From an uncultured bacterium (lineage in GTDB: Bacteria; Oederibacteriota; PGYV01; CAWJRG01), in NCBI GenBank assembly GCA_963845185.1, contig CAWJRG010000006.1:32709-96708 (forward strand): 64,000 bases of DNA, read 5' to 3'. Positions 31,687 through 56,743 of this stretch are shown here, one piece after another. Numbering within the stretch: the stretch's first letter is position 1; every line of letters starts with the position of its first letter. The notes below the pieces were generated by a model, which worked only from the letters and a program-made list of their open reading frames with translations, ran no database searches and was not told the DNA's origin. The position numbers and the translations under genes are program-made.

Positions 31687-34600
31687 ATGAAAAAAATCCT
31701 TACATTGGTTTTCACCATTTTATTTTTTATGCCTGTTTTTGTTTTTGCAGACGTCTGGTCGGATTTTCACGGCACAAACAGCACCGCGGGTAATATTGAT
31801 ACAGGGACAAGGTATAACCCTGATTCAACATTAAATCCTTCCTGTTTGGGGTTATTATTGTCGCAAACAAACTGGGACGGCGCGGGCGTAAATGTTATAC
31901 AGGAGTCATCGCCGGCGGTGGCAAATGGGATTGTATATTTAGGGTCAACAGATGGCAAATTATACGCATGGAACGCGGCAACAGGAGTTGCTATTTCTGG
32001 ATTTCCAACAAACACAAACACATACGCGGCTATTTCATCAACTCCGGCAATAGCAAATGGAATTGTATATGTGGGGTCGGACGATGGCAATTTATACGCA
32101 TGGAATGCGGCAACAGGAGCGGCTATTACAGGATTTCCTGTAAGTACCGGAGCATATCTTACATCATCACCGGTAATAGCAAATGGGATTGTATATATTG
32201 AATCGAATTATCCGGATAATAAATTATACGCGTTTAATGCGGCAACAGGCGTTGCCATTTCGGGATTCCCTGTAAGTGCAGGAGGAGCTCAACTATCATC
32301 GCCGGCAATAGCAAATGGAATTGTATATGCCGGGTCATACAATGGTAATGTATACGCGTTTAACGCGTTAACAGGCGCTGCTATTTCTGGATTTCCCGTA
32401 AGTACAGGAGGAGGCATTGACTCATCGGTTGCAATATCAAACGGAATAATATATGTTGGTTCTTATGACGGCAAATTATACGCATGGGACGCAGCGACAG
32501 GTGTTGCTATTTCAGGATTCCCGGTAAGCACAGGCGGGGAAATTGCATCGTCGCCGGCCATAGCAAATGGGAACGTATATGTTCAGTCTTATGACGGCAA
32601 ATTATACGCATGGAACGCGGCAACAGGCGTTGCCATTTCGGGATTCCCTGTAACTGTAACTCTAAATTTGCTTAATAACCTGAGATCGTCACCGGCAGTA
32701 GCAAATGGTTATGTCTATGTTGGAACAAATGATAATGAAATATACGCTTATAATGCTGCAAATGGAAATTTAGCATGGCAATATCAATTACCATCGAATT
32801 ATGACAGCGAAGGAGTTGATTTTTGTTCTCCTGCAATAGTAGGTAACGAATTGTTTGTTTCATCAGACCAGGGCAACGGCATATTTGTTTTCGCGCAGTG
32901 CACGCCGACACCCACAGATACTCCAACAGCAACCCCGACATATACATACACTCCGACGCCGACAAACACGCCCATAGTGACGCCGTCAATAGCAGTAGTA
33001 GGCATAAAAGACAGCGCCATAGACTGGCTGCACACGATGCAGATGCTGACGCCTACATATTCTGCCGCAGTTGACGGGGCATGGGGCTTCACAAATAACC
33101 AGTGGGGCTCGAATACGGGCTATCCTACTCCGCCGCCTACCCCCGCGGCCGACTGCCAGGCAAACGGTGAGAACACGTCATCGACCGCGGAAGTGGGCGT
33201 AACAGGGCTTGCCGTGCTTGCCCTGCTCAACGAGGGCGCTTATTTTTATTTTACGACCATTCCGCCCGCGGTCACTGACACGCCTGTAATCGGCCTGAGC
33301 GTGAACGACCCTGCCGTGCTCAGGGGCATAGGGTACATACTCAGCAATGCGCAAATAACAAATGTTTTTCCCGATGGAAGCGTAGAAGGCCCTATAACAG
33401 ACAGGAAAGTGCCGGCAGTGGAGGGGGTAACCGACGTGTACGACACGTCCAGCGCCCTGGTCGCGCTGGCGGCGTTCAGGAGAGTGGCAAGAAACACGGG
33501 CCTATGGGGCAATATCGCGCATTTCCAGGCCATAGATTCGGATTTGCCGAATGATTTCTTTGACCGGATAGAGAAGGCCATGGAACAAGGCTGGAGGTAT
33601 TTGATGAACGTGCAGATGATAGAACTCGGAACCAGCCTTGATACGTCCAGGGAAATAGACCTTTTCGGGACAGGTACTTTTACAGAAACAACATGCTTTT
33701 ATGGCGGTTGGGGATACCCGAGAATTAACTGGGCAGATATGAGCAATACTCAGTTCGCTGTCTGGGCGCTGGAAGTATTGGATACAGAGACGAGGACGTA
33801 TACAGTGTATACTACTACGGGGAATCCTATATTACCTGATGCCATAGCGGCGCCATTGACAGTAGGAGTTCCGTATCAGACACTGGAATTTTATATTGCC
33901 CGGCGCGACAAGGCGCATATTTTTATAAGCAGGGATAACCAGGCTTATTTAAATTACATACTCTCGCAAAACTGGCCGTTATTCAGCGCCATGCCCACGC
34001 CTGCGCCGGGCCCTGAGGGCGGATATTACGGCCCATGCGCCGGCCAGTACACAATACACACGCAAAACCCGCCTTATGGCAGCATAACAGCGGCAGGTAT
34101 CTGGTCCCAGTATTGCGCAAATTATCCATGGACATCAATTCCACCGGGTCCATCTGTAGGTAGTTCAGACCCGGTTGCGTGGGATGAATATTTATGGTTG
34201 CAAAATGCCAATATGTATAACAATAATCCCGGCCTAGCCGGCCAATTTTATTTTTATTATGTGATGACCATGACAAAGGCGTTTTTAATGAGTAATGTAA
34301 CTACTATAGACTGGGGTTCTGACTGGTATGCTGATTTTGTAAGCGCATTATTGCCGCCCAGAGCTACTTTAGTAAGCGTACCATGGCCGGTTTATCCGAA
34401 TTGCGCGCAAAAATATTATTGGCACGATGTGGGCACATATTTTCCGACTGGTTATGCGCAGACTGAAAAAGACGTGTTCGGGACAATATGCGCCATACTC
34501 GGCATAGAGACAAAGCTTGGCCCAGCTCCATATAATATAGCCGGCACAACGCCTGTTAACAGGTTATATATCGAGCTAATGAGCCCGGGCGAGCTTCTCG

Positions 34601-36099
34601 CGATTGATGAAAATAACCAGCAAACAGGTTGTCAAAACGAGGCAAATTATATCCAGATACCAAGCTCTACGTTCACGGGTTGTGGGACCGAGCCTCAGAG
34701 AATAGAAGTAAACAGCCCGGCTGGCGTATACAGGGTGAAGATAAAAGCCATTAGTAACGCATTTGTTACCTTAAAGGCCGGAACAATATTTTACGGCAAT
34801 ACAATGAGCGAATATTCCAAAGGCATAACAATGACAGCAGGACAGACCCTTGAATACCGTGTGAGCGTAGGGAACGTATTCTGGCCATTGACTTTATCAT
34901 GCAGTTTCAGCCATGGAATAAGCGCGCCGACGCCGGCCTATACGCCTACGGAAACATTAACAGAAACACTAACTTATACCGCAACCCAAACCCCGTCCCG
35001 TAGCTTTACCCCAACTTTTACTTACACAAATACTCCGACAGCTACGGCAACATATACCGCAACGCCCACTCCGACAAATACGGAAATACCGGGCTTGTGC
35101 TATAGGCTGAAATACAGGCCAGTGATTGAAAAAATCCACACAAACACAATCAATCCTGAGATTGTCGTGAAGAATTGCTCGAAAAAGGACGTTGATTTGA
35201 GCGGCGTGGTAATAAGGTATTTCTATACTTCTGACGGTTACTCAGGCGATGAGATTACAGGGATTATCAAGGCGTTTAAGACAGGAAAAACCGGCAACAG
35301 GGATAATAAATACAGGGGGATGAGACAGGGGGATGAGGCAGGGGGAGAGTTATTGGATGATGAGGATTTTGAAAAGGATGAGAACATAGGATTTGACATG
35401 GACAAGGAAAAAGGAAAACACAATATATCAGGCTGCGTGAACGTAAATGTAATAAAAGTTCCGGGATTCTGCCAGGACAGGATACTCGAAATAACATTCA
35501 ACGATTGCGCCGGGATTTTGGAGCGCGACGGTAAAATATCGTTGAGCGTGTTTGTAAGAAGAAAAGACGGCAGTTTATATGACCAGTCGAATGATTATTC
35601 GTTTGGAAAGTTTGAGGAATGGAAAAACTGGGACAGGATATGCGTATATGACAGCGGATACCTTGCATGGGGCAAGGAACCTGAATGCATATCGCCTTCG
35701 GCGAGTGCTACGTGGGGAGTGGTAAGTGCTACGTTAACTGCAACTACAACACCTACACGAGAGCAGGTATGCGAAGACAATGCAAAGACAACGCCGCAGG
35801 AAATATCAATTGAACCAAACGATAAAAACGTATATAATTATCCCAATCCTTGTAAGGGACAGACAAGCATAAGATTCCCTTTGCCTGAGCAGCAGCAAGT
35901 AAAGATAGTTATTTATGACATTAACGGAAGGATAATATGGCGGAAAGAATTAAGCCCTGCGGAGACAATACAGGGAATAAACAGCGTAAGCTGGAACGGA
36001 GAAAACGACTTGGGACAGGAAACGGCGAACGGCGTATATTTTTGCAGGGTGGTTTTTAGGGACATAACAATAACTAAAAAAATAGCGGTAATTCGCTGA
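31687..36099 (+). CDS. Large secreted modular protein: PQQ-like propeller, prenyltransferase/terpene-cyclase-like (alpha/alpha) domain, Ig-like domain, CBM3, T9SS-CTD/FlgD-like tail
   Basis: Signal peptide; about 7 SSPAIANGIVY..S.DG.LYAWNAATG repeats; GGWGY...DMSNTQFAVWAL and YGSITAAG; TNTINP...DLSGVVIRYFYT.D...YDQSNDYSF; YNYPNP...ANGVY...KIAVIR. Confidence 0.85.
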   Translation: MKKILTLVFTILFFMPVFVFADVWSDFHGTNSTAGNIDTGTRYNPDSTLNPSCLGLLLSQTNWDGAGVNVIQESSPAVANGIVYLGSTDGKLYAWNAATGVAISGFPTNTNTYAAISSTPAIANGIVYVGSDDGNLYAWNAATGAAITGFPVSTGAYLTSSPVIANGIVYIESNYPDNKLYAFNAATGVAISGFPVSAGGAQLSSPAIANGIVYAGSYNGNVYAFNALTGAAISGFPVSTGGGIDSSVAISNGIIYVGSYDGKLYAWDAATGVAISGFPVSTGGEIASSPAIANGNVYVQSYDGKLYAWNAATGVAISGFPVTVTLNLLNNLRSSPAVANGYVYVGTNDNEIYAYNAANGNLAWQYQLPSNYDSEGVDFCSPAIVGNELFVSSDQGNGIFVFAQCTPTPTDTPTATPTYTYTPTPTNTPIVTPSIAVVGIKDSAIDWLHTMQMLTPTYSAAVDGAWGFTNNQWGSNTGYPTPPPTPAADCQANGENTSSTAEVGVTGLAVLALLNEGAYFYFTTIPPAVTDTPVIGLSVNDPAVLRGIGYILSNAQITNVFPDGSVEGPITDRKVPAVEGVTDVYDTSSALVALAAFRRVARNTGLWGNIAHFQAIDSDLPNDFFDRIEKAMEQGWRYLMNVQMIELGTSLDTSREIDLFGTGTFTETTCFYGGWGYPRINWADMSNTQFAVWALEVLDTETRTYTVYTTTGNPILPDAIAAPLTVGVPYQTLEFYIARRDKAHIFISRDNQAYLNYILSQNWPLFSAMPTPAPGPEGGYYGPCAGQYTIHTQNPPYGSITAAGIWSQYCANYPWTSIPPGPSVGSSDPVAWDEYLWLQNANMYNNNPGLAGQFYFYYVMTMTKAFLMSNVTTIDWGSDWYADFVSALLPPRATLVSVPWPVYPNCAQKYYWHDVGTYFPTGYAQTEKDVFGTICAILGIETKLGPAPYNIAGTTPVNRLYIELMSPGELLAIDENNQQTGCQNEANYIQIPSSTFTGCGTEPQRIEVNSPAGVYRVKIKAISNAFVTLKAGTIFYGNTMSEYSKGITMTAGQTLEYRVSVGNVFWPLTLSCSFSHGISAPTPAYTPTETLTETLTYTATQTPSRSFTPTFTYTNTPTATATYTATPTPTNTEIPGLCYRLKYRPVIEKIHTNTINPEIVVKNCSKKDVDLSGVVIRYFYTSDGYSGDEITGIIKAFKTGKTGNRDNKYRGMRQGDEAGGELLDDEDFEKDENIGFDMDKEKGKHNISGCVNVNVIKVPGFCQDRILEITFNDCAGILERDGKISLSVFVRRKDGSLYDQSNDYSFGKFEEWKNWDRICVYDSGYLAWGKEPECISPSASATWGVVSATLTATTTPTREQVCEDNAKTTPQEISIEPNDKNVYNYPNPCKGQTSIRFPLPEQQQVKIVIYDINGRIIWRKELSPAETIQGINSVSWNGENDLGQETANGVYFCRVVFRDITITKKIAVIR

Positions 36100-36109
36100 T
36101 AAAACATAC

Positions 36110-36156
36110 AAAAGGCAAAGGAACGATGAAAAATTCTTTTGCCTTTTTATTTTTTT
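36110..36156 (+). terminator. Hairpin followed by a T-tract (putative intrinsic terminator)
   Basis: AAAAGGCAAAGGAA...TTCTTTTGCCTTTT then T-rich tract. Confidence 0.6.
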
Positions 36157-36168
36157 GAAGGAGTAGGT

Positions 36169-38064
36169 GTGAAAAAAATAAAATCTATTTATATACTTTT
36201 TATATCGTTAATATCTTTATCAATACAAATAAAAGCTGGAAACATATGGATAGATGCGCATGGCACAAGCGATACAAGCGGGACGTGGAATAGCGGCATA
36301 AGGTCGGATACCCTGACAACAATATATCCGCCGTATGTGAAAAGATGGGAAAAATATGCGTGGAGCGTAACACCCAGTGCAAATGTAGTACCAACAGATA
36401 ATTTTTCTTTAATTTATAATGGATATGTATACTTTGGTCAAGGAGATCAAGATACCGGAGGAGTGCATTGGGACGACCCGGGCTATGTTTGGGCATGGGA
36501 TATACAAACAGGGGTGACTAAAACAGGATATTCTTTAGGACCGTTAGATAGTGGAATAATCTCAGTAGGGGGGGGGCTCGTAATTGGAAATAATAATATA
36601 TATGCGATAACACAGCATAAAGTATATGGTTGGAGTTTGAATACTTTAAATTTAATATCCGGATTTCCTGTAGATATAACAGAAACAGTTGGACAAACAT
36701 TGTGGGTATTACCTGAAGATGGAATAATATATTGGCAAAATAAATTATATTTCGTAGTTGGTGATTTTAGGGGAAATACAGCGGATATGAGAAGTTATTT
36801 ATTCGTAAAAGACGCGAATAATGGAAGTGAATTATGGAGGAAACAATTAAGCATGGGGGGTGGGCAGACTCCTGCGATTTGGAATGGCCGTGTATATGTA
36901 GCAGGAAGGACAGACCAGCAAATTCATTGCTGGGACGCGAATACAGGAGCTGACTGCGCGAATTTTCCCGTAAGTGTAACTGGAACAATGCGGGCAATGC
37001 CGGTAATAGAAAACGGCATAATATATATTGGTGATGAATCAGGATATTTTTATTCGATAGACGCGACAACAGGGAATATAAATTGGACATATACGACCAT
37101 AGGCAGCGAGCACATAGACAGCACGGCAAGCATATGGCAGGACAAGATATATTTTGGCGGGGATAATGGAAACTTGTATGGGCTGTATAAAGTGACAGGG
37201 AATCTTGTGAGCGGGTTTCCAGTCGGCAATGCCGGCGGTTCTGGGCCAATGAGCACCGCAAATGGCGTAATATACAACGCTGGTTATGGGGGCCTGGCAA
37301 TTAACGCAAATAACGGCGCTTTGTTATGGACTGGAAATCCAGATACATCACATGGCGGTGGAGTCTCTTTTCAATATAATTATCAATCAGCAACTATAGG
37401 ACAGAATGAGGTAGTAATGGTGTATTCGGGATTTAATGGAATTGTAGTATACTGCATGCCGTCGCCAACAACCTCGCCGACAGCTTCGCCCACAATAACC
37501 GGAACACCACCGACACAGACCATGACCGAAACCATAACGCCGACGATGACTTACACAAGCACGCAGACAATGACAAGTACTTATACGATAACAGTCACAA
37601 TCACGCAGACATTTACATCCTCTTCGACAGCTTCGACTTCGGCTACACCTTCGCTCACTGGTACAAGCTCAGTGTCCAACACTCCTACTGCGACTATGAC
37701 ATTGACAATAACTCAAACATTGACGCCATCGGCTACATATACCATAACGCCGACAGTAACAGCGATTCCAGCCTCTTTTTATTTTAAACTCATAGCAAAC
37801 TCCCCAAACCCTGCCAGTGGATATACTTACATTATCTATGAACTCGGCACGGGAGCGGATGTAAAAGTCAAAATATACACAATAAGCGGGGAAAAAGTAA
37901 CCACATTTGAACAACAAGGCTCGGCTGGAAGAAATAGCATCCGATGGAACTGCAAAAATTTTGCGAATAAAGACGTAGCCAGCGGAGTATACATATACAG
38001 AATTGAAGCGGTGTCAGGCAGCAATAAAGCAAAAGCGTGGAGCAAACTGGCGGTAATAAGATGA
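36169..38064 (+). CDS. Secreted PQQ-like (BamB-type) propeller protein with Thr-rich linker and CTD; paralog B
   Basis: GAAGGAG RBS with GTG start; signal peptide; propeller repeats; NSPNP...ASGVY...KLAVIR. Confidence 0.85.
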   Translation: MKKIKSIYILFISLISLSIQIKAGNIWIDAHGTSDTSGTWNSGIRSDTLTTIYPPYVKRWEKYAWSVTPSANVVPTDNFSLIYNGYVYFGQGDQDTGGVHWDDPGYVWAWDIQTGVTKTGYSLGPLDSGIISVGGGLVIGNNNIYAITQHKVYGWSLNTLNLISGFPVDITETVGQTLWVLPEDGIIYWQNKLYFVVGDFRGNTADMRSYLFVKDANNGSELWRKQLSMGGGQTPAIWNGRVYVAGRTDQQIHCWDANTGADCANFPVSVTGTMRAMPVIENGIIYIGDESGYFYSIDATTGNINWTYTTIGSEHIDSTASIWQDKIYFGGDNGNLYGLYKVTGNLVSGFPVGNAGGSGPMSTANGVIYNAGYGGLAINANNGALLWTGNPDTSHGGGVSFQYNYQSATIGQNEVVMVYSGFNGIVVYCMPSPTTSPTASPTITGTPPTQTMTETITPTMTYTSTQTMTSTYTITVTITQTFTSSSTASTSATPSLTGTSSVSNTPTATMTLTITQTLTPSATYTITPTVTAIPASFYFKLIANSPNPASGYTYIIYELGTGADVKVKIYTISGEKVTTFEQQGSAGRNSIRWNCKNFANKDVASGVYIYRIEAVSGSNKAKAWSKLAVIR

Positions 38065-38145
38065 CGCTCAAAGTTCAAAGCTCAAGGCAACAGGAGAGGC
38101 AAAAACGTGATAAAATTTTTTCAGACATATAAAGACGATATAATA

Positions 38146-38230
38146 ACAGGAGACGGCGAACGGCGTATATTTTTGCAGGGTGGTTTTCAGAGACATAACG
38201 ATAACCAAACGAATTGCTGTTATCCGCTGA
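38146..38230 (+). pseudogene. Orphan 3' end of a paralog of the 31687-36099 gene
   Basis: Reads QETANGVYFCRVVFRDITITKRIAVIR*, versus ...KKIAVIR* at 36016-36099. Confidence 0.85.
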
Positions 38231-38247
38231 TAGATTTTGTGCGATTA

Positions 38248-38279
38248 GCAAAGGGAACGGGTTTAGCCGTTCCCTTTGC
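38248..38279 (+). terminator. Perfect 13-bp hairpin
   Basis: GCAAAGGGAACGG-GTTTAG-CCGTTCCCTTTGC, directly after the remnant stop codon. Confidence 0.6.
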
Positions 38280-38308
38280 ATTATTGAAAAAGAAAAAGGG
38301 GTATAAAT

Positions 38309-40213
38309 TTGATAAGTTGTAATAAAAAATCAGTAATCAGAATTTGCTTAATCATAATGGGCTTGTTTTTATTTATGAATGTGAAAGCAGGTAATATCTG
38401 GATAGATAACTATGGGACAAGCAGCACAGCAGGGACGTGGAATAGCGGTATAAGGTCGGATACAACAACTACAATACAACCGCCTTATGTAAAAAGATGG
38501 GAAAATTATGCGTGGAGCGTAACACCCGGTGCGAATGTAGTGCCTTATACTAATTTTGCTTTAATTTATAATGGATATGTATATTTTGGTCAAGGAAATG
38601 CGGACACAGGAGGGGTATATTGGGACAACCCGGGGTATGTATGGGCATGGGACATACAGACGGGCGTGACAAAAACAGGGTATCCGCTCGGGCCGATTGA
38701 CAGCGGAATAATATCAATAGGTGGATTAGTAATAGGAAATAATAATGTGTATGCAATAACACAGCATAGAGTATATGGATGGGATTTAAATACTCTGAAT
38801 TTAATATCAGGATTTCCTATAGATATAACAGAAACAGCTGGACAAACATTATGGGTTAGACCTGAAGATGGGATAACATACTGGCAGAATAAATTATATT
38901 TTGTAATTGGTGATCTGAGAGGAAATACAGCGGATATGAGAAGTTATTTATTCGTAAAAGACGCGAATAATGGAAGTGAATTATGGAGGAAACAATTAAG
39001 CATGGGGGGTGGGCAGACTCCTGCAATATGGAATGGACGGGTATATGTAGGAGATAGACAAAATCAGCAAATTCATTGCTGGGACGCGAATACAGGAGCT
39101 GACTGCGCAAATTTTCCCGTAAGTGTAACTGGAACAATGCGGGCAATGCCTGTAATAGAAAATGGGACAATATACATCGGAACAGAATCGGGATATTTTT
39201 ACTCGATAGACGCGACAACAGGGAATATAAACTGGACATATGCGACCGTTGGCAACGAGCACATAGACAGCACGGCAAGTATCTGGCAGGATAAGATATA
39301 TTTTGGCGGCGATAATGGAAACCTGTATGGGCTGTATAAAGCGACAGGGAATCTTGTGAGCGGGTTTCCAGTCAGCAATGCCGGCGGTTCTGGGCCAATG
39401 AGCACCGCAAATGGCGTAATATATAACGCTGGTTACGGAGGCCTGGCAATTAACGCAAATAACGGCGCTTTGTTATGGACTGGAAATCCAGATGCAACGC
39501 ATGGCGGTGGAGTCTCTTTTCAATATAATTATCAATCAGCAGCTATAGGCCAGAATGAGGTAGTAATGGTGTATCCGGGATTTAATGGAATTGTGGTTTA
39601 CTGTATGCCATCACCCACAGCCTCGCCGACAGTTTCGCCCACCATAACCGGAACTCCGCCGACACTTACAATGACGGAAACCATAACGTCTACCATGACT
39701 TTCACAAGCACGCAGACAATGACAAGTACTTATACGATAACAGTCACAATCACGCAGACATTTACATCCTCTTCGACAGCTTCGACTTCGGCTACACCTT
39801 CGCTCACTGTTACAAGCTCGGTGTCCAACACTCCTACTGTAACTATGACATTGACAATAACTCAAACCTTGACACCTCAGCCTACATATACCATAACGCC
39901 GACAGTAACAGCGATTCCAGCCTCTTTTTATTTTAAGCTCATAGCAAACTCCCCAAACCCTGCCAGTGGATATACTTACATTATCTATGAACTCGGCACG
40001 GGAGCGGATGTAAAAGTCAAAATATACACAATAAGCGGGGAAAAAGTAACCACATTTGAACAACAAGGCTCGGCTGGAAGAAATAGCATCCGATGGAACT
40101 GCAAAAATTTTGCGAATAAAGACGTAGCCAGCGGAGTATACATATACAGAATTGAAGCGGTGTCAGGCAGCAATAAAGCAAAAGCGTGGAGTAAGCTGGC
40201 GGTTTTGCGATAG
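38309..40213 (+). CDS. Secreted PQQ-like propeller protein with Thr-rich linker and CTD; paralog B'
   Basis: Near-identical to 36169-38064 after the signal peptide. Confidence 0.85.
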   Translation: MISCNKKSVIRICLIIMGLFLFMNVKAGNIWIDNYGTSSTAGTWNSGIRSDTTTTIQPPYVKRWENYAWSVTPGANVVPYTNFALIYNGYVYFGQGNADTGGVYWDNPGYVWAWDIQTGVTKTGYPLGPIDSGIISIGGLVIGNNNVYAITQHRVYGWDLNTLNLISGFPIDITETAGQTLWVRPEDGITYWQNKLYFVIGDLRGNTADMRSYLFVKDANNGSELWRKQLSMGGGQTPAIWNGRVYVGDRQNQQIHCWDANTGADCANFPVSVTGTMRAMPVIENGTIYIGTESGYFYSIDATTGNINWTYATVGNEHIDSTASIWQDKIYFGGDNGNLYGLYKATGNLVSGFPVSNAGGSGPMSTANGVIYNAGYGGLAINANNGALLWTGNPDATHGGGVSFQYNYQSAAIGQNEVVMVYPGFNGIVVYCMPSPTASPTVSPTITGTPPTLTMTETITSTMTFTSTQTMTSTYTITVTITQTFTSSSTASTSATPSLTVTSSVSNTPTVTMTLTITQTLTPQPTYTITPTVTAIPASFYFKLIANSPNPASGYTYIIYELGTGADVKVKIYTISGEKVTTFEQQGSAGRNSIRWNCKNFANKDVASGVYIYRIEAVSGSNKAKAWSKLAVLR

Positions 40214-44363: not shown

Positions 44364-47300
44364 ATGAAAAAAGTAATTTTTTTTGCTTTGGTTTTTATGC
44401 TGGTGAAAGCCGTGCCTCTTTTTGCGGTTTACGGGCAAACCTCGCTTGTCGCCGGAGAAGGAGCCTATTACGGGGACAACAGCACATACCTTGACGCCAC
44501 TTTTAACGGGCCGATGGATATCGTTATAGACCCGGCAACAGGCAATAAATATATTGCGGATACATATAACAACGTAATAAGGGAAATAAGCGCTTCCGGT
44601 ATAGTGACGACACTGGCAGGAAACGCCGCGGCAGGTTATGCCGAAGGCATAGGAGCAGCCGCAAGTTTTAACAATCCCTACGCTATATGCCTTGACAGCC
44701 AGGACGGCATCATATTTGTGGCCGACACCATAAACAGCAGGATCAGGGGGATTTACCTTTCGAATTCGCAGACTTTCCTTGTCGCAGGCCTGAGTAATAG
44801 CGGCGCGTCGGACGGTGCGAATACTGTAAACGCCAGGTTTTACAGCCCGATGGGCATAGCGTACGACGGGTCAGGGCCTGTTCATTATATTTATGTCAGC
44901 GACTCGTATAATTACAAGATAAGGAGAATCGACCTGACCGCCAACACAACCACAACCATAGCAGGGGCAAGCTATGGCTACAAAGAAGGGACGGGCGCCG
45001 GAGCTTTATTCAACGCGCCCAGGGGCATTGATATAGACACTGTCAACCAGATATTATATATAGCGGATACGGGGAATAACAGGATAAGGGGGCTCAACCT
45101 TTCTACAAAAGCTTCTTTTTACGTCGCAGGAGGCTCTGCCGGCTGGCAGGACGGCAACAGCACCACGGCAATGTTTTCGGCGCCGGCTGACGTGAGCCTT
45201 AATACAATCAACGCTGAATTATACGTGGCAGACCAGAACAATTATGACATAAGGGCAGTCAATCTTGCGGCAGGCACGGTCGCTACGCTTGCGGGAAATC
45301 ACCTGGCTTCGGGCTATAAGGAGGCCACGGGCACGGCAGCGCTTTTCAACAAGCCGCAGGGAAACGCGTATAATTATATCGACAATAAAATTTATGTCGC
45401 AGATACGGGGAACTCGAGGATCAGGACAATTGACCCTGCAAATAACAGCCAGACCGCGCTTTTTTCCGGCATGAGCAGCTATGGCGGGGACGGGAATATG
45501 GCCCCAAACGCCACTTTTTACGCGCCGAACGACGTGGCTTTAAATACAGTAACAAGCAGGAAATATATTGCGGACACGGGCAACAGCGCGATAAGGATGA
45601 TTGATGAAGGCAGCATGATATCTACAATCGCCGGCAACGGGTCCGCAGGATACGCCGAAGGATTGGGCACATCAGCCGTGTTTTCAAGCCCGCAGGGGCT
45701 GGCCGTGGATTCAATAAGAAACCTGCTATATATTTCAGACTCAGGCAACCATGCAATAAGAAAGCTTGACCTTTCCACTTACCAGACTTCGCTGGTGGCC
45801 GGCAGCCCCGGGGTTTCAGGATATGCCGACGGCATCGGCAGCAACGCGAAATTTTACAACCCGGGAGGGATTGACATCGATGCGCAAAATAACATTCTTT
45901 ACGTGGCTGACACCGGGAACCAGGTTATTAGAGAAATTAATTTGAACACGGACCAGACTTCCTTTATAGCCGGGCATATGACCACAACCGCCAGCTACGC
46001 CGAAGGCACAGGCGCCAGCGCTTATTTTCACAGTCCGTACGGGGTCTTATATTACGGCACTTATAACATTTTATTTGTGACAGACACCGGCAATGATGTA
46101 GTAAGGTACATTGAGCTCGGCACGCAGCAAACCGTGCTTCTTTCAGGCACGCCCCAGACCCCCGGCGATGTTCTTGTGCCGACGGGAGGCGGAATGTTGT
46201 CAGCCAAATTTAAAAATCCCACGGGGCTGGCTCTTGACTATAACGCCCAGTTATTATATGTAAGCGATTCGGGAAACGAGAAGGTAAAGGCAATCGACCT
46301 CGCAGGAAACGGGGTTTACGAGGTCTCGGGAAGCAGCACAGCCGGTTACGCGGAAGGCATAGGAACAGCAGCGCTTTTTACCAGCCCGTACGGGATGGGG
46401 ATTGATGTGAATAACCAGGCGGTATATATAGCCGACTCCGGGAACAGCAGGATAAGGAAGATAGATGTAACCATGCCGACGCCTACAGTGACCATAACCC
46501 AGACAGGCACAATTACTTTAACGCCAACCATATCCCCGACCATGAATGGTACGGCAACCGTAACCCCCACTCTCACTACATTTTTGAGCGCAACAATAAC
46601 GCCGACTTACAGCCAGTCTTTTACGCAGACACAGACATTTACGATAACAGAAACATTGACCATAAGCCCGACGGATACTGCCACGCAAACCGGAACAAAC
46701 ACAGGAACAGCAACGCCGACAATGACAATAACCCAAACGCCGACCATAAGCCCTACAGATACAACAACAGCTACCAATACCGTTACCTCGACAGAAACGC
46801 CGACATACACAATCACTGAGACCATAACTTCGAGCCCGACTTACACATACACCTGCACATATACGGAAACAATGACATGCACGGAAACACCCACAATCTC
46901 ACAGACACCCACGCCGAGCCCTTATGTTTCAAACACTCCGACTTATACAATAAGCGAAACTCTAACACAGTCGGCAACTTTTACGGAAACAATGACTTTT
47001 ACGGATACGCAGACAGCAACGGCAACCGGTACGGTCTCTCTTACAACGACGATTACGGAAACACTGACGGCAACGGCACCGGAAACAGCAACGCCTACTG
47101 CCACGGCTTCCCTTTATTTAACATCATTTACACCCACCCCTGCGCTGACAATCACGGCCACAAGCACGCCTGTGGAATATATAGAACTGGATCCCAATTT
47201 TATAAAAGGCCAGATTGTAATACCAAACCCGTCAAGCGGGAATTTCAGAATAAGATTTACCACAACGCAGCAGGCAAAAACAATAAATGTAAAAATTTAT

Positions 47301-47480
47301 ACTTCCGGGTTCAGGCTTATCAGGATGCAGCAATATATTGATGTGATTACGGGCATTCATGATATGCAGATAGAAGACATGAACAATGCCGCAAGCGGCT
47401 GGTATTATTATTCGATTGACGGCGAAAGCGATTATGGGGACAAGACGCTGGTTTACGGCGGGTTCATTATAATCAAATAA
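44364..47480 (+). CDS. Secreted NHL-repeat (two propellers) protein with long Thr-rich linker and CTD
   Basis: Signal peptide; about 12 F..P.G....LY.AD.GN..IR.I repeats; about 230-aa T/P linker; PNP...IYTSGFRLIR...ASGWYYY. Confidence 0.88.
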   Translation: MKKVIFFALVFMLVKAVPLFAVYGQTSLVAGEGAYYGDNSTYLDATFNGPMDIVIDPATGNKYIADTYNNVIREISASGIVTTLAGNAAAGYAEGIGAAASFNNPYAICLDSQDGIIFVADTINSRIRGIYLSNSQTFLVAGLSNSGASDGANTVNARFYSPMGIAYDGSGPVHYIYVSDSYNYKIRRIDLTANTTTTIAGASYGYKEGTGAGALFNAPRGIDIDTVNQILYIADTGNNRIRGLNLSTKASFYVAGGSAGWQDGNSTTAMFSAPADVSLNTINAELYVADQNNYDIRAVNLAAGTVATLAGNHLASGYKEATGTAALFNKPQGNAYNYIDNKIYVADTGNSRIRTIDPANNSQTALFSGMSSYGGDGNMAPNATFYAPNDVALNTVTSRKYIADTGNSAIRMIDEGSMISTIAGNGSAGYAEGLGTSAVFSSPQGLAVDSIRNLLYISDSGNHAIRKLDLSTYQTSLVAGSPGVSGYADGIGSNAKFYNPGGIDIDAQNNILYVADTGNQVIREINLNTDQTSFIAGHMTTTASYAEGTGASAYFHSPYGVLYYGTYNILFVTDTGNDVVRYIELGTQQTVLLSGTPQTPGDVLVPTGGGMLSAKFKNPTGLALDYNAQLLYVSDSGNEKVKAIDLAGNGVYEVSGSSTAGYAEGIGTAALFTSPYGMGIDVNNQAVYIADSGNSRIRKIDVTMPTPTVTITQTGTITLTPTISPTMNGTATVTPTLTTFLSATITPTYSQSFTQTQTFTITETLTISPTDTATQTGTNTGTATPTMTITQTPTISPTDTTTATNTVTSTETPTYTITETITSSPTYTYTCTYTETMTCTETPTISQTPTPSPYVSNTPTYTISETLTQSATFTETMTFTDTQTATATGTVSLTTTITETLTATAPETATPTATASLYLTSFTPTPALTITATSTPVEYIELDPNFIKGQIVIPNPSSGNFRIRFTTTQQAKTINVKIYTSGFRLIRMQQYIDVITGIHDMQIEDMNNAASGWYYYSIDGESDYGDKTLVYGGFIIIK

Positions 47481-50179: not shown

Positions 50180-50190
50180 GGGCTAAAATA

Positions 50191-51303: not shown

Positions 51304-52032
51304 ATGATTAATAAGAAGGCATTTGCAATAATCTTATTTTTTACCGCTGTTTTTTCATTATGCCTATACGCCGGCAATTACAAATTCGGGTTCCCTTTGC
51401 CGGGCACTGCTGCGCCGGATTCCGTGCCCCTGGATGCCATGAGAAAAATAGCCGCGGATTCAGCCGTGTCCGTATGGGGGCAGGCTTTACCGGTGGCGGA
51501 AATACCGTGCTGCGGCATGGACGGCGCAGAATCTTTTTATTATTTTGTCTTCAGGATAGACGGCGGCGCGCCGGGGGATTACCCGTCAATCACATCTGAA
51601 ATCATGCAGGGAAGGGCCGATTACAAAGAAATAATAAATTCCCCCGTGAATAACACGAAAGAATATTACGCTAAATTCCTGGACGCGAAAAAAAGGAAGT
51701 GGGGCATAGGCAGGTACGGGACCGTCGTAGTTTCATGCAGGCTGTCGTTCCCGCCGGTGCCAGAGTTTATACACGGCCTGCCGCCTTTTTATACCATGCT
51801 TGATATTATGGCGTCGCAGTGCCCTGCAGGGGCAACGCTTACGAGGATTTATTATATTACGCCCATGGACCAGTTTTATGAATTTTCCTCAGGCAGCAAA
51901 AGCACGGTAATTGACGGGCTGTCGCTGAAAGTTGAGGACATGGACGGCCTGAAGAAAAGATACCCGGGCTCATTTGCCTCCAATGCAAATGAAAAAAATT
52001 TTGAAAAGGAATGGGCCCGCTATGGCCGCTAA
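51304..52032 (+). CDS. Secreted protein resembling a cysteine-protease prodomain/inhibitor (Spi/I69-like)
   Basis: Signal peptide; FYYFVF...GTVVVS....PPV.EF and terminal N...EW pattern; overlaps the start of the protease gene. Confidence 0.55.
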   Translation: MINKKAFAIILFFTAVFSLCLYAGNYKFGFPLPGTAAPDSVPLDAMRKIAADSAVSVWGQALPVAEIPCCGMDGAESFYYFVFRIDGGAPGDYPSITSEIMQGRADYKEIINSPVNNTKEYYAKFLDAKKRKWGIGRYGTVVVSCRLSFPPVPEFIHGLPPFYTMLDIMASQCPAGATLTRIYYITPMDQFYEFSSGSKSTVIDGLSLKVEDMDGLKKRYPGSFASNANEKNFEKEWARYGR

Positions 52033-55000
52033 AAAAACCCTCCTCATATCAGCCTTTATATTATGCGTATTTTCACTGCATGCGGCTTATCATTATGTTC
52101 CTTACATGGACGGGGCAGACATGACGCGCATGCCTGCTTTTTTGTGGTATGCGGGCTGCGCCCCGACATCAGCGTGCATGGTACTGGGTTACTGGGATAA
52201 TTACGGCGCCATGGGCGGCGGGACTTATGGCAAGAACATCAATTACGGCAAACTTTTGCAGTATTATATGGACAAGACCGCAATGCTTACGCTGAAGGGG
52301 TACAACGGGACGATTTTTTCGTGGAGTTATTACGACGCGGACGTGCCAAAGGCAAAAACACAGTACGAGCTGGCGTATTATATGCACACCGATTCCGGCG
52401 GCGGCACAACCACCAATATGGCGCCGGTGGGAATAGCAACGGTCGCGGCATCCAGGGGCTATACCGACGCGACCAGCGAAGATTTGCAGGGAACCGCGGC
52501 CAATGACTGGTCGTGGCAAAACCTTGTGAATTCCATCAACAGCGGGCAGCCGTGCATATGGTACAACATCATATCCAGCCAGGGGCATGCCATGGCGGCA
52601 TGGGGATACAATGACAACAAGTATGTCATGGTTTACAACACATGGGATGAAATGCGCCATGATTATTATTACCAGTATTACACCGGAGTGACAGGCATGG
52701 CTAATGTGCTTGCAGGCGTGACCACGTTCAATCCCGGGACCATGGGCATGGATTCGGACGCGGAGCTTTTTTCGCCTGACGGCGGCGAGGCATGGGCCGA
52801 TAACATACCGCAAAGCATACACTGGCAGCAGTACGGGCCAAGCATAGATACAGTGAACATATTTTATTCCCAGGACGGCGGGCTGGACTGGACGCAAATA
52901 ACTTCAACTGCGGGCGCAACAGGCGACAATTATTTTACATGGACCCCTCCGGGTACAGTGAACTCAACGAGAATGAGGGTCAGGATAGAGGGGTGGTCCG
53001 GAGGCGGGAGCGGCCTGCATTACGGCGACGACGGCAGCAGGCAGAATTTCTCGTGCACGGCACCTACATTTACATGCACACCGACGCCGACATTTACAGG
53101 CACGCCGACAATAACGCAGACATATACAGTAACGCCTTTAGTGTCGCCGACGGGCACCCCGATAATAACCAGTGTTCCCACCATAATTCCGGGGTCAACG
53201 CCCTGCTTTATAACGCAATGGGGCGGTTTAGGAACCGGCAACGGGCAGTTTTATAATCCTTACGGAGTAGCAGCAGACAGCAGCGGAAACGTGTATGTTT
53301 CAGACACTTATAACAACAGGATACAAAAATTCAGCAGCACAGGCACATATATAACGCAGTGGGGCGGTTTAGGAACAGGCAACGGGCAGTTTGAATACCC
53401 CAATGGAATAGCGGCAGACAGCAGCGGGAACGTGTATGTTGCAGACACTGATAATAACAGGATACAAAAATTTGACAGTACAGGCACATATATAACGCAA
53501 TGGGGAAGTCCGGGAACCGGCAACGGGCAGTTTAGCTGGCCCTATGGAGTAGCAGCAGACAGCAGCGGAAGCGTGTATGTTTCGGATGCTGATAACAGCA
53601 ACATCCAGAAATTCAGCAGTACAGGCACATATATAACGCAATGGGGAAGTCCGGGAACCGGCAACGGGCAGTTTAGCTGGCCCTATGGAGTAGCAGCAGA
53701 CAGCAGCGGAAGCGTGTATGTTTCGGATGCTGATAACAGCAACATCCAGAAATTCAGCAGTACAGGCACATATATAACACAGTGGGGAAGTTACGGAACA
53801 GGCAACGGGCAGTTTGATTATCCTGAAGGATTGGCTGCAGACAGCAGCGGAAACGTGTACGTTATAGACGATGGCAATGACAGGGTACAGGAGTTCAGCA
53901 GTACAGGCACATATATAACACAATGGGGAAGTTCCGGGACAGGCAACGGGCAGTTTGATTTTCCTTATGGAGTGGCAATGGACAGCAGCGGAAACGTGTA
54001 TGTTTCAGACACTGAAAATAATATAATCCAGAAATTCGGCGCGTGCCTCAGCCCTACGCCGACTCCGACATCCGGGCCGACGCCCTGTTTTATAATGCAG
54101 TGGGGAAGTTACGGGACAGGCAACGGGCAGTTTAACGGTCCTGTAGGAATAGCAATAGACAGCAGCGGAAATGTGTATGTTTCAGACAATGAAAGAATCC
54201 AGAAATTCAGCAGCACAGGCGCATACATAACGCAATGGGGCAGCCTAGGAAACGGAATTGGGCAGTTTAACGGCCCTACCGGAATAGCAACAGACAGCAG
54301 CGGAAACGTGTACGTTGTGGACACTTATAATGACAGGATCCAGATATTCAGCAGCACAGGCGCATACATAACCCAGTGGGGAGGTTTTGGATTTGGCCCC
54401 GGGCAGTTTTACTGGCCCGGTGACATAGCATTGGACAGCAGCGGAAACGCATATGTTGCAGATTCCAGCAACAGCAGAATTCAGGTGCTGAGCAGTACAG
54501 GCGCATATTTAACCCAGTGGGGAAGTTATGGGACAGGCAACGGGCAGTTTAACTCGCCTTATTTCCTGGCGCTGGACAGCAGCGGAAACGTGTACGTTGC
54601 AGACGATGTTAACGACAGAATACAAAAATTCAACAGTGCAGGCACATACATAACGCAATGGGGCAGTGCCGGGACCGGCCCGGGGCAGTTTAATAACCCG
54701 TGGGGGCTGGCGGCAGACAGCAGCGGGAACGTGTATGTTGCGGACAATTCCAACGGCAGAATCCAGGAATTCAGCAGTACAGGCGCATACATAACGCAAT
54801 GGGGCAGCATAGGAAACGGCATAGGGCAGTTTATTTATCCTGATTCCGTGGCAATAGACAGGAGCGGAAACATATATGTTACGGACGAAGGCAATAACAG
54901 GATCCAGAAATTCGGCGCGTGCGGTAACCCGACGCTTACTTTAACGGCAATACCTGCAATAACACAAACCATAACTGAAACAACGACGGGCACTCCTACG

Positions 55001-56743
55001 ATGACACAGACAAGGACGCCGGTCCCGTCGCAAACACAGACGTACACGGCAACGCCTGTCGTATCTTTGACAAACACATTGACAACAACACTGACAAGCA
55101 CAATGACACCTACGCCGACAATGACGCCGACTTTAACAACAACGCCTGTAGTGTCAATGACAGATACTGCGACAGCGACGCCGACATATACGGCAACACC
55201 TGTAGTATCGGCGACAGAGACCCCTACAGCGACACAGACGTTTACAGCAACGCCTGTTGTGTCAGCCACAGACACGCCGACAATAACGCCGACATATACT
55301 GCCACTTTAGTGTCCGGGCCTACGCCCTGTTACATACTTAACTGGGGAACATTCGGGGCCTCCAGCGCGCAGTTTAATAATCCATATGGAGCAGCAGCGG
55401 ACAGCGCCGGAAACGTGTATATCGCTGACACTGATAACAACAGGATCCAAAAATTCGACAGCACAGGCACATATATAACCCAGTGGGGAAGTTCAGGAAC
55501 AGGCATTGGCCAGCTTAACAGCCCCATGGGAATAGCAACAGACAGCAGCGGAAACGTATATGTTTCGGATTCGGGCAATTACAGGATCCAAAAGTTCAAC
55601 AGCACAGGCACTTATATAACCCAGTGGGGAAGTTTAGGAACGGGCATTGGGCAGTTTAGCTGGCCTTATGGAATAGCGGTTTACAGCAATGGAAATGTGT
55701 ATGTTGTAGATACAGGCAACAACAGGATAGAAGAATTCAGCAGCACAGGCGCATATATAACCCAGTGGGGAAGCGCCGGCAGCGGCACAGGGCAGTTTTA
55801 CAGCCCCATGGGAGCAGCCATGGACAGCAGCGGGGACGTGTATATAGTGGATACCAATAATAACAGGATAGAAGAATTCAGCAGTACAGGCGCGTATATA
55901 ACCCAGTTTGGCGGCGCAGGAATCGGCAACGGCCAGCTTTTTTATCCGGAAGGGATAGCGGTGGACAACAGCGGAAACGTGTATGTTTCAGACAGCATGA
56001 ACAACAGAATCGAAGAATTCGGCAGCAATGACATTTATTTTACACAGTGGGGCGCTTACGGGACCGGCGCAGGCCAGTTTAACGGGCCTGGCGGAGTAGC
56101 AGTGGACAGCAGCGGGGACGTGTATGTTGCAGACGTCAGTAATTTCAGGATACAAAAATTCGGAGCGTGCACCAGCCCGACGCCGACTTTTACAAACACA
56201 GTATCGCAGACGCCTACATATACAAACACGCCGAGCCCGACGCCGACGTTTACGGTGACTCCAACATCGACATGCACAAATACAGCCACGGCTACCGGCA
56301 CAACAACGCTCACTTTTACTTATACCGCCACGATTACCCCTTCCCGGACAGCACTGGTTTTTACAGCCACGCCAACTTATACGGCGACATACGCCGGGAC
56401 CGTGACGCCGACTGTTATCCCGACCGAATCCACGGCAAGAATAATCAATCCTGTAATTTACCCCAACCCGTATGACCCGGCAGGTAACGGGGACTTGCGG
56501 ATAAGGCTGCAGATTACGCAGGTATTTAAGAATATCAGGCTGAGGATATACACCGTGGCTTTCAGGCTGATAAGGGAAGAAACCTGGGACGGGGAATTCC
56601 AGGCAGGCGGAATAAACATAGACGTCGCGCAGGACAAGCTTTATAACATGGCAAACGGCACATATTATTTCCTGATAACGGCTGAAACATGGGACGGGAA
56701 GACAATAAAAGGCAAGCCGGAAAACGTCATTATATTAAGATAA
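52022..56743 (+). CDS. Secreted papain-like (C39/C10-type) cysteine peptidase + Ig-like domain + three NHL propellers + Thr linkers + CTD
   Basis: Signal peptide from 52022; WYAGCAPTSACMVLGYW (Cys), GHAMAAWGY (His), YNTWD; 18 QWG..G.G.GQF..P.G.A.DSSGNVYV.D..N.RIQ.F repeats; IYPNP...IYTVAFRLIR...ANGTY. Confidence 0.87.
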   Translation: MAAKKTLLISAFILCVFSLHAAYHYVPYMDGADMTRMPAFLWYAGCAPTSACMVLGYWDNYGAMGGGTYGKNINYGKLLQYYMDKTAMLTLKGYNGTIFSWSYYDADVPKAKTQYELAYYMHTDSGGGTTTNMAPVGIATVAASRGYTDATSEDLQGTAANDWSWQNLVNSINSGQPCIWYNIISSQGHAMAAWGYNDNKYVMVYNTWDEMRHDYYYQYYTGVTGMANVLAGVTTFNPGTMGMDSDAELFSPDGGEAWADNIPQSIHWQQYGPSIDTVNIFYSQDGGLDWTQITSTAGATGDNYFTWTPPGTVNSTRMRVRIEGWSGGGSGLHYGDDGSRQNFSCTAPTFTCTPTPTFTGTPTITQTYTVTPLVSPTGTPIITSVPTIIPGSTPCFITQWGGLGTGNGQFYNPYGVAADSSGNVYVSDTYNNRIQKFSSTGTYITQWGGLGTGNGQFEYPNGIAADSSGNVYVADTDNNRIQKFDSTGTYITQWGSPGTGNGQFSWPYGVAADSSGSVYVSDADNSNIQKFSSTGTYITQWGSPGTGNGQFSWPYGVAADSSGSVYVSDADNSNIQKFSSTGTYITQWGSYGTGNGQFDYPEGLAADSSGNVYVIDDGNDRVQEFSSTGTYITQWGSSGTGNGQFDFPYGVAMDSSGNVYVSDTENNIIQKFGACLSPTPTPTSGPTPCFIMQWGSYGTGNGQFNGPVGIAIDSSGNVYVSDNERIQKFSSTGAYITQWGSLGNGIGQFNGPTGIATDSSGNVYVVDTYNDRIQIFSSTGAYITQWGGFGFGPGQFYWPGDIALDSSGNAYVADSSNSRIQVLSSTGAYLTQWGSYGTGNGQFNSPYFLALDSSGNVYVADDVNDRIQKFNSAGTYITQWGSAGTGPGQFNNPWGLAADSSGNVYVADNSNGRIQEFSSTGAYITQWGSIGNGIGQFIYPDSVAIDRSGNIYVTDEGNNRIQKFGACGNPTLTLTAIPAITQTITETTTGTPTMTQTRTPVPSQTQTYTATPVVSLTNTLTTTLTSTMTPTPTMTPTLTTTPVVSMTDTATATPTYTATPVVSATETPTATQTFTATPVVSATDTPTITPTYTATLVSGPTPCYILNWGTFGASSAQFNNPYGAAADSAGNVYIADTDNNRIQKFDSTGTYITQWGSSGTGIGQLNSPMGIATDSSGNVYVSDSGNYRIQKFNSTGTYITQWGSLGTGIGQFSWPYGIAVYSNGNVYVVDTGNNRIEEFSSTGAYITQWGSAGSGTGQFYSPMGAAMDSSGDVYIVDTNNNRIEEFSSTGAYITQFGGAGIGNGQLFYPEGIAVDNSGNVYVSDSMNNRIEEFGSNDIYFTQWGAYGTGAGQFNGPGGVAVDSSGDVYVADVSNFRIQKFGACTSPTPTFTNTVSQTPTYTNTPSPTPTFTVTPTSTCTNTATATGTTTLTFTYTATITPSRTALVFTATPTYTATYAGTVTPTVIPTESTARIINPVIYPNPYDPAGNGDLRIRLQITQVFKNIRLRIYTVAFRLIREETWDGEFQAGGINIDVAQDKLYNMANGTYYFLITAETWDGKTIKGKPENVIILR
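53476..53778 (+). repeat. Perfect 141-bp tandem duplication (one NHL blade)
   Basis: 53476-53616 is identical to 53617-53757, and the match continues 21 nt further. Confidence 0.9.

Follow-up and report, generated by a model that had tools for sequence, protein, structure and literature searches.

A stretch of 64,000 nucleotides from the genome of an uncultured bacterium (GTDB lineage Bacteria; Oederibacteriota; PGYV01; CAWJRG01), which extends from position 32,709 to 96,708 on the forward strand of contig CAWJRG010000006.1 (assembly GCA_963845185.1) and to which we refer as the window, contains five genes whose products terminate in a domain resembling the type A C-terminal domain (CTD) that directs proteins to Bacteroidota's type IX secretion system (T9SS). 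Latter has been described, in the accessible portions of the respective papers, as being confined to Bacteroidota or to the Fibrobacterota-Chlorobiota-Bacteroidota (FCB) group and as depending on a proton-driven motor (PMC11205867, PMC10202324, PMC7906972, PMC12398890). The locus raises the question of which pathway would be served by such tags in a bacterium of a different lineage. An initial inspection of the letters, in the following called the sequence-only reading, had ascribed to the five genes a common plan of a Sec signal, propeller or enzyme modules, a long Thr/Pro linker and a terminal domain occurring in two subtypes, and had proposed a divergent T9SS-like or analogous, potentially undescribed system in a non-Bacteroidota host, which would expose enzymes and adhesins on stalks of the mucin type. 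Our analysis of the window and of its source genome suggests that the five genes probably encode cargo of a reduced and divergent type IX-like pathway in a bacterium of the Goldbacteria/FCPU426 lineage. The assignment to a reduced or divergent T9SS follows from the presence of homologues of its outer-membrane parts, which, as judged from profile searches, appear to be kept in divergent form and conserved in the phylum, whereas motor, ring and a conserved sortase are undetectable.

The C-terminal tag of five window genes

The five genes were found to be organized as follows (positions are those of the window; aa, amino acids; ORF, open reading frame):

31687..36099, plus strand: candidate cargo gene 1, 1470 aa; signal peptide, PQQ_2/BamB-like beta-propeller, Thr/Pro linkers, CBM3-like module, C-terminal tag
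36169..38064, plus strand: candidate cargo gene 2; signal peptide, PQQ_2 propeller, Thr/Pro linker, tag; the ORF opens at 36139, with a likely GTG start at 36169
38309..40213, plus strand: candidate cargo gene 3; tandem paralogue of gene 2 (89% identity)
44364..47480, plus strand: candidate cargo gene 4, 1038 aa; signal peptide, NHL-repeat propellers, Thr-rich linker of about 240 aa (aa 697-937), tag
52022..56743, plus strand: candidate cargo gene 5; signal peptide, marginal C39-like domain, three NHL propeller blocks parted by Thr/Pro linkers, tag; the ORF opens at 51974, with a likely ATG start at 52022

The proposed common plan could be traced in all five genes. Their N-termini, as read from the translations, contain a basic and a hydrophobic stretch followed by an Ala-X-Ala-like end, and the internal starts at 36169 (GTG) and 52022 (ATG) agree with the signal peptides of genes 2 and 5. 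We judged these signal peptides by reading the N-termini, since our heuristic for their detection was too permissive. Propellers are assigned by Pfam, with PQQ_2/BamB-like repeats in genes 1-3 and NHL repeats in genes 4 and 5, whereas the case for the anticipated enzyme modules is weak, as the only additional matches are CBM3 in gene 1 and Peptidase_C39_2 in gene 5, latter at 18 bits and below its cut-off. The modules are separated by segments rich in Thr and Pro, of which each gene contains between one and three with lengths of 38-139 aa; in gene 1 such linkers are located at aa 395-442 and 1079-1141, and its big central module is without Pfam match. All five proteins terminate in a domain of 89-97 aa that runs to the last residue, which is either R or K, and there are exactly five ORFs of this kind in the window.

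A comparison of the terminal domains to the curated models TIGR04183 (cut-off 23 bits) and PF18962 (Por_Secre_tail, cut-off 27 bits) and to a custom hidden Markov model (HMM) gave the following result:

35830..36096, plus strand: CTD of gene 1 (aa 1382-1470), FlgD-like subtype; TIGR04183 41.8 bits, PF18962 34.5 bits, custom HMM 86 bits
37792..38061, plus strand: CTD of gene 2 (aa 552-641 of the ORF); TIGR04183 39.2 bits, PF18962 28.8 bits
39941..40210, plus strand: CTD of gene 3 (aa 545-634); TIGR04183 39.1 bits, PF18962 28.8 bits
47211..47477, plus strand: CTD of gene 4 (aa 950-1038), IYT..FRLIR subtype; PF18962 20.7 bits (cut-off not reached), custom HMM 49 bits
56450..56740, plus strand: CTD of gene 5 (aa 1493-1589 of the ORF), IYT..FRLIR subtype; custom HMM 72 bits

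The tags of genes 1-3 exceed the cut-offs of both curated models, a resemblance far beyond chance, and the tag of gene 5 has no direct match in Pfam or NCBIfam. The window tags also score 19-28 bits on FlgD_ig (PF13860), a domain of the same fold class which, unlike the tags, resides inside the flagellar hook-cap protein and is no terminal signal, and in all four window proteins matched by both models Por_Secre_tail outscores FlgD_ig. The two subtypes are connected by several profile comparisons. HMMs seeded from each of them converge on 166 and 163 ORFs of the genome with 163 in common, and profiles of two first-round sets without common members (89 and 41 sequences) are aligned by hhalign at 98.9% over 89 columns (E 2.6e-17). 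The motif IY[TDN]..[FYL]R[LR][IV] is present in 43 of the 157 tags identified in the genome; a single-linkage clustering placed 150 of these 157 into one lump and hence did not resolve subtypes. For a profile of 23 sequences, mostly from the second subtype, the best match in the PDB is the CTD of PorU from Porphyromonas gingivalis (6za2, residues 1055-1153, E 5e-6); the same profile matches the cargo CTD in entry 8glj_D of the SprA complex (E 0.027), with FlgD and PorZ (5m11) being weaker. An AlphaFold model of the gene 5 tag shows an eight-stranded beta-sandwich (predicted local distance difference test score, pLDDT, 91.5), for which PorU (6za2) is among the best overlaps detected by Foldseek (TMq 0.68, root mean square deviation 3.1 A). 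This fold fits a CTD yet does not discriminate, so homology stands on the sequence profiles. According to these profiles, all five tags are true homologues of the T9SS type A sorting domain, and the IYT..FRLIR tags of genes 4 and 5 are a divergent subtype of the same domain, in line with both the type A resemblance and the two subtypes put forward in the sequence-only reading.

The five window genes are part of a much larger set. The source genome (3.50 Mb, 11 contigs, 99.4% complete) contains 88 matches to TIGR04183, 84 of them above cut-off, and the custom HMM detects the domain not more than 10 aa from the stop in 157 ORFs, which together encode 166,393 aa or about 14% of the genome DNA. 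The last residue is K or R in 126 of the 157, and a Thr/Pro linker is found in 121 of them, compared to 30 of the 1220 remaining ORFs with a length of 300 aa or more. An internal location of the domain was found in 38 matches. Twenty-eight are extra tandem copies, placed just before the terminal one, in 16 proteins that also end in the tag, whereas nine ORFs contain an internal copy only, of which eight are fusions with PorV-like barrels and the ninth has its domain ending 21 residues before the stop. Outside these fusions and tandem copies the domain is always C-terminal. Of the two outcomes that would have spoken against the sequence-only reading, namely a canonical T9SS in an FCB genome or a domain found internally as well and on proteins devoid of signal peptides, we consider neither to apply. 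A first look at relatives gave 39-77 candidate matches to TIGR04183 compared to 136 in the source genome; at a threshold of E <= 1e-9, which is too strict for this purpose, their counts drop to 1, 1, 1, 0 and 1.

A SprA homologue and an expanded family of PorV-like barrels

Besides the tags, the source genome encodes a candidate for the outer-membrane translocon. A protein of 2145 aa on contig 9 (181574-188011) aligns to the SprA model TIGR04189 through four collinear segments (E 3.6e-54, 183.7 bits), and the profile of its family matches the SprA structure from Flavobacterium johnsoniae (6h3i_A, E 1.6e-20). Full-length homologues are present in all 31 genomes of our sample of the phylum. While the single sequence retrieved no related loci, an alignment of six homologues did, and identified full-length relatives in metagenome-assembled genomes (MAGs) titled Candidatus Goldbacteria or candidate division FCPU426. 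On TIGR04189, homologues labelled FCPU426 and Elusimicrobia reach 224.5 and 205.8 bits, respectively, with values of 455 bits for a protein from Longimicrobiales and 1834 bits for SprA from Rhodothermia. The Elusimicrobia-labelled protein is 1843 aa long, and the reduced system may reach into this neighbouring phylum. Full-length SprA-like proteins with 37-41% identity were also encountered in two MAGs titled Candidatus Methylomirabilis sp. and uncultured Spirochaetia, which are possibly mislabelled or mixed bins. Down to the entry from Longimicrobiales, all named homologues (from Goldbacteria, FCPU426, Elusimicrobia and unclassified 'bacterium') are annotated as 'hypothetical protein', and the SprA name is carried only by distant homologues of the Bacteroidota type. 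As defined by these profile matches, the protein is a homologue of SprA whose status as equivalog is marginal.

Within the phylum, the locus displays the gene order heptosyltransferase, P0007, chemoreceptor (in some genomes), SprA-like gene and a protein of about 1100 aa with multiple fn3 domains that ends in the tag. P0007 is a conserved single-pass membrane protein of about 220 aa, found upstream of the SprA-like gene in five of seven related loci, whose periplasmic part is modelled as a YmcC/LolA/RseB-like half-barrel at a low TM-score of 0.40 and whose atlas scores all are 0.84 or lower. We found no link between P0007 and a motor, its model does not resemble a GldM-like rod, and no gene cluster of the gldKLMN type adjoins the SprA-like gene.

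The second component concerns barrels of the PorV/PorQ family, which are encoded in 38 ORFs corresponding to 37 genes. The family model NF033709 (cut-off 90 bits) is passed by 11 of 12 tested barrels with scores of 109-191 bits, and one barrel matches PorV from F. johnsoniae (6h3i_F, E 8e-6). The best scores on the equivalog models of PorV (NF033710, 89 bits at a cut-off of 250) and PorQ (NF033711, 128.5 bits at a cut-off of 220) remain below threshold. The expansion is found throughout the phylum, as five genomes of good quality, which represent five families, gave 22, 31, 26, 32 and 8 strong matches. Many of the barrels carry C-terminal extensions consisting of TPR, of FlgD_ig plus OmpA, or of fn3. 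Fusions to a CTD-like FlgD_ig and a peptidoglycan-binding OmpA domain are located on contig 6 (114190-116163) and contig 5 (773336-775657), with further OmpA fusions of this kind on contig 10 (689147-691120 and 781060-783159) and contig 9 (786483-788417).

Tags and barrels are strongly linked on the genome. For 25 of the 37 PorV-like genes the immediate upstream neighbour on the same strand is a tagged gene, where 2.0 would be expected (binomial P 2.5e-23), and a looser count at the level of ORFs arrives at 26 of 38. Linkage to a barrel is found for 22 of 109 cargos of the FlgD-like subtype vs 2 of 42 of the IYT..FRLIR subtype (Fisher P 0.024). Such a neighbourhood was also seen in two further families of the phylum, where about 100-140 bases separate a strong TIGR04183 match from a PorV-family match downstream of it on the same strand; this concerns two of four TIGR04183 matches seen across four other genomes. 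Two tagged proteins of about 320 aa that adjoin PorV-like genes (contig 10, 234130-235119; contig 5, 181226-182158) have a Cys/His-rich N-terminus that appears anti-sigma-like by eye and lack a signal peptide. Their tag was recognized by the custom HMM, with Pfam agreeing in case of the contig 10 protein (FlgD_ig, 37 bits) and detecting nothing in the contig 5 protein, and the pair may be involved in trans-envelope signalling via a PorV-like barrel. On contig 9 (454680-464016 and 476283-497798), two giant ORFs of 1989 and 6262 aa share another C-terminal sequence that is distinct from the CTD; behind each of them, a small tagged protein and a TPR-bearing PorV-like barrel are encoded, which has the look of a three-gene module.

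In Bacteroidota, barrels of the PorV/PorQ type bind such tags. A prediction of the complex between the tag of an NHL/DUF11 cargo and the barrel encoded three bases downstream reached a score of 0.74, compared to 0.00 for the best of three controls. Of 157 solved complexes 116 attain the mark applied, as do 2 of 215 mismatched pairs, counts that are rough since custom alignments were used. The runs agree in at least 95% of their contacts, the partner has a pLDDT of at least 77, and the contacts map to conserved motifs of the tag, namely the PNP region, the IYT strand, the G.Y.Y strand and the last strand. As PorV and a cargo CTD are both represented in solved entries, the pass may mirror those structures instead of binding by this particular copy.

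Missing components and competing explanations

In Bacteroidota, secretion requires both motor and ring. Our profile searches for GldL, GldM and GldN found none of them in the source genome, nor in three relatives, among them one MAG labelled Goldbacteria and one labelled FCPU426, whereas in the positive controls Niabella and Chitinophaga all three were found in clusters, with GldM scoring 389 and 167 bits. Across the phylum, not one of 99 genomes, 60 of which are at least 90% complete, contains any match to GldM at E <= 0.01. Similarly, GldL is above cut-off in none of 99 genomes (with five weak matches, E 7e-4 to 7e-3) and GldN was found in none of 31. Searches for GldK retrieved only partial matches of the sulfatase-domain type (28-45 bits at a cut-off of 350), which also occur in three T9SS-free control genomes. 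For PorP/SprF there was no match in three genomes of the phylum, while the controls gave 12 in Chitinophaga and none in Niabella.

The search for a sortase led to a protein of 1657 aa on contig 5 (17878-22851), which combines a Peptidase_C25 domain (129 bits) with CBM3 and a CTD. It is without in-frame signal peptide; a typical one in another frame overlaps its 5' end, consistent with a frameshift or an assembly error. On the PorU model NF033707 the protein reaches 65 bits at a cut-off of 420, its C25 region has no meaningful match in the PDB, and in a search of the source genome with the PorU equivalog nearly all matches are to the CTD part. A second C25 copy is gingipain-like and contains a propeptide, and the C25 domain occurs in 3 of 31 genomes of the phylum. 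We thus read the C25 proteins as cargo or lineage-specific extras and not as a conserved sortase. With respect to energy, the source genome contains four loci of the MotA/ExbB family, two of which are clusters of a TPR protein, a TonB-dependent-receptor-like barrel, ExbB and TonB. The region 133001-149000 of contig 9 encodes a Big_1 protein, a tagged ORF of 116 aa, a split PorV-like gene, two TPR proteins and a split ExbB. This ExbB, 4 kb downstream of the tag/PorV-like pair, marks the sole site with a gene of the proton-channel type near both and is a lead only towards an energy source.

These results invite alternative explanations. In one of them, which we regard as unlikely, the tag would be a FlgD/Ig-like module for docking to PorV-like barrels or the cell surface, with the outer membrane being crossed by a secretin-based type II secretion system (T2SS) or by vesicles, and the SprA-like protein serving a different purpose. 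Such docking would accommodate the failure to find the known motor and a conserved sortase, the generic fold and the occurrence of the domain inside PorV-like fusions, in tandem and on the anti-sigma-like proteins without signal peptide, and the genome contains two secretin genes. These, however, fit type IV pili plus one T2SS and do not account for a tag that 157 proteins have in common. The 157 ORFs, with the domain exactly at the C-terminus and a basic last residue, are instead reminiscent of T9SS cargo, and tag, SprA homologue and PorV family co-occur throughout the phylum, the same three parts that in Bacteroidota form one transport pathway (PMC12618676, accessible text; solved structures).

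We consider it improbable as well that the system is an ordinary, complete T9SS whose equivalents of GldK, GldL, GldM and GldN have diverged past detection by NCBIfam models. With the SprA-like protein itself being below its curated cut-off, other parts could have escaped in the same way, particularly GldL and GldN, which are short and carry a weak sequence signal. Five proteins of the FGE-sulfatase type show weak matches to GldK, and the conservation of P0007 next to the translocon would be compatible with a further component. Nevertheless, GldM, a model strong enough to be readily found in both controls, is missing at E <= 0.01 in all 99 genomes, GldL stays below its cut-off in all 99, and GldN was detected in none of 31. 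The weak matches of the GldK type are equally found in controls devoid of a T9SS, the model of P0007 is a half-barrel, and there is no motor-like cluster beside the SprA-like gene.

The host was placed from the labels of its kin. Genomes of the same order are labelled Candidatus Goldbacteria or FCPU426, both of which NCBI taxonomy lists under 'Bacteria candidate phyla', and in the accessible part of Doud 2019 Goldbacteria fall into FCPU426, with Firestonebacteria and Elusimicrobia as nearest neighbours, and contain flagellar genes. From labels, NCBI lineage and cited neighbours, the host lies outside Bacteroidota and the classical FCB group. This agrees with the non-Bacteroidota host that had been deduced from translation starts and promoters: a Shine-Dalgarno-like core precedes 18 of 24 window genes, compared to 13% of random 17-mers, and the window contains 60 sigma-70-like sites, compared to 40.2 +/- 5.7 in shuffled DNA. 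LepA was uninformative as taxonomic marker, with 53-62% identity to many phyla. A recent transfer of the cargo genes from Bacteroidota was rejected in view of the conservation, at 27-45% identity, that both the SprA-like gene and the PorV family show throughout the phylum. Although many TIGR04183 proteins and a SprA homologue might suggest an FCB bacterium with a canonical T9SS, we give this very little credence in view of same-order kin that NCBI taxonomy places outside FCB and that group near Firestonebacteria and Elusimicrobia (Doud 2019, accessible part), of common starts led by Shine-Dalgarno sequences, and of GldL, GldM and GldN not being found despite positive controls.

A probable reduced type IX-like pathway in the Goldbacteria lineage

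The explanation that we favour, with the five window genes as cargo of a reduced and divergent type IX-like pathway, can be laid out as a sequence of steps. Cargo would first be exported by Sec via its signal peptide, and the folded protein would then be recognized by its tag, exit the periplasm through the SprA-like channel and be handed over to a PorV-like barrel. Many cargos would own a dedicated barrel, which probably also acts as surface anchor, and for several barrels an OmpA or TPR extension could provide a connection to the cell wall. Where no barrel gene adjoins, as for the five window genes and almost the entire IYT..FRLIR subtype, the cargos would rely on one general barrel in common. 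The Thr/Pro segments would act as spacers that hold the propellers off the membrane, and the tag would presumably not be cleaved. With GldL/M, GldK/N and a conserved PorU missing, the power for transport and the fate of the tag must differ from Bacteroidota. In P. gingivalis, PorU-PorV and PorZ-PorQ both consist of a retained CTD bound to a PorV/PorQ-family barrel in a non-covalent anchor. We propose these pairs, by analogy, as a model for the cargo-barrel pairs; whereas there the CTD is retained in two components of the machine, here its retention would be general for dozens of cargos. Concerning the two options of the sequence-only reading, the SprA-like protein and the 37 barrels of the PorV/PorQ family favour a reduced or divergent T9SS and leave no ground for an analogous or wholly undescribed system, and on the same profile evidence we regard the system as homologous to the T9SS, not analogous.

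Several points weigh against this assignment. We know of no precedent for a machine consisting of SprA and PorV only, and the set may not transport or may need unrecognized parts; secretion, surface location and fate of the tag are all deduced from genes. The score of the SprA-like protein lies below the TIGR04189 cut-off of 200 bits, the aligned positions of the model cover about 98-1471 of 2319, and a single-sequence phmmer search of the protein against the PDB gave no match. The tag adopts a generic Ig-like sandwich, for which unrelated sandwich domains lead the Foldseek ranking with PorU at rank 13, and its tandem copies and PorV-like fusions imply that the domain is not used solely as terminal signal. 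No PorV-like neighbour was found beside any of the five window genes, which makes their receptor guesswork. The signal-peptide heuristic separated poorly (113 of 157 tagged vs 514 of 1192 control ORFs, 43%), absence calls come from sequence models that may miss very divergent proteins, and the assembly of 11 contigs is probably a MAG with some apparent frameshifts, in which ORF starts are uncertain and several ORFs resemble fragments.

A bolder version, which we put forward tentatively as a possibility that may well turn out wrong, holds that Goldbacteria, and probably their Elusimicrobia-like neighbours, use a minimal type IX-like pathway composed of a SprA channel and dozens of cargo-specific PorV/PorQ receptor-anchors, without GldLM, PorKN and sortase, which would be either the ancestral core of the Bacteroidota machine or a version run by another engine. 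If true, it would also explain 'orphan' T9SS tags in other phyla outside FCB.

The relation to described systems is summarized best by comparison. With the T9SS of Bacteroidota, the system shares the combination of Sec signal and TIGR04183/PF18962 beta-sandwich tag, a giant SprA-family protein, barrels of the PorV/PorQ family and large multidomain cargo. It differs in that our searches did not find GldL/M, GldK/N and PorP/SprF and that a sortase of the PorU type lacks conservation, in the number of PorV-like barrels, about 37 in place of a single general PorV, in a very divergent SprA with N-terminal fn3 repeats, and in its host, a flagellated candidate phylum outside FCB that uses Shine-Dalgarno sequences. 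In Bacteroidota, type A CTDs all use PorV, whereas type B cargos, as in F. johnsoniae, have linked PorP/SprF-like shuttles (Paillat 2025, PMC12618676, accessible text). The linkage of a cargo gene to its own barrel gene, with orphan cargos sharing a shuttle, resembles this type B system, but in the source genome a type A-like tag is combined with a barrel of the PorV/PorQ family, with 25 of 37 barrels being linked in this way, so that the arrangement mixes the tag rule of type A with the cargo-barrel linkage of type B. In Poribacteria, a candidate phylum outside Bacteroidota, TIGR04183 was described on repeat proteins (WD40, PQQ, fn3), Por structural genes were not found and the pathway was left open, as far as the accessible part of that report extends (Kamke 2014, PMC3909097); in the source genome, a SprA homologue and the PorV family would provide the likely machinery. 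We found no paper on T9SS parts in Goldbacteria or FCPU426, in a search that covered few subscription journals; combined with T9SS terms, these names retrieved only Doud 2019, where the term appears in a reference.

In the window, the genes between the five tagged ones encode housekeeping proteins (fmt, def, thioredoxin, thioredoxin reductase, RidA) and an IS110-family transposase, which characterizes the five as scattered cargo genes and not as an operon of the system. The transposase gene (40946-42136, minus strand) is located between the gene 2/3 pair and gene 4 and overlaps the end of a family-less ORF of 248 aa. Immediately after gene 5, the region 56769-62326 (minus strand) contains an ORF of 153 aa that corresponds to a C-terminal piece of a YfhO-like protein, and a family-less ORF of 615 aa, which may together form one split membrane protein of the glycosyltransferase type, and then a Wzy_C protein of 997 aa (O-antigen ligase or O-oligosaccharyltransferase type). 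These genes are candidates for glycosylation of the Thr/Pro linkers or for the synthesis of a surface polysaccharide. The gene set at 31687-40213 occurs once more, with part of it in fragments, on contig 10 (about 175000-187000), where the tails of the ORFs are near-identical to genes 1-3 and several ORFs are without N-termini. At 2494-3972 (plus strand), three consecutive small PilZ-domain genes are located downstream of a class II ribonucleotide reductase.

The described features define a candidate phylum outside FCB with about 14% of one genome devoted to T9SS-tagged proteins, in which, of the secretion machinery, only the outer-membrane translocon and an expanded PorV family appear to be kept, with SprA-like homologues that outside records of the Bacteroidota type go as 'hypothetical protein' down to the Longimicrobiales entry. 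A link between Goldbacteria and the degradation of cellulose has been described (Doud 2019, accessible part), and a route for the export of surface proteins would therefore bear on the attack of such polymers. If the set is functional, it would define a minimal core of type IX transport, offer a natural test of the purpose of the motor, and provide a candidate pathway for the orphan tags of other phyla such as the Poribacteria (PMC3909097, accessible part).

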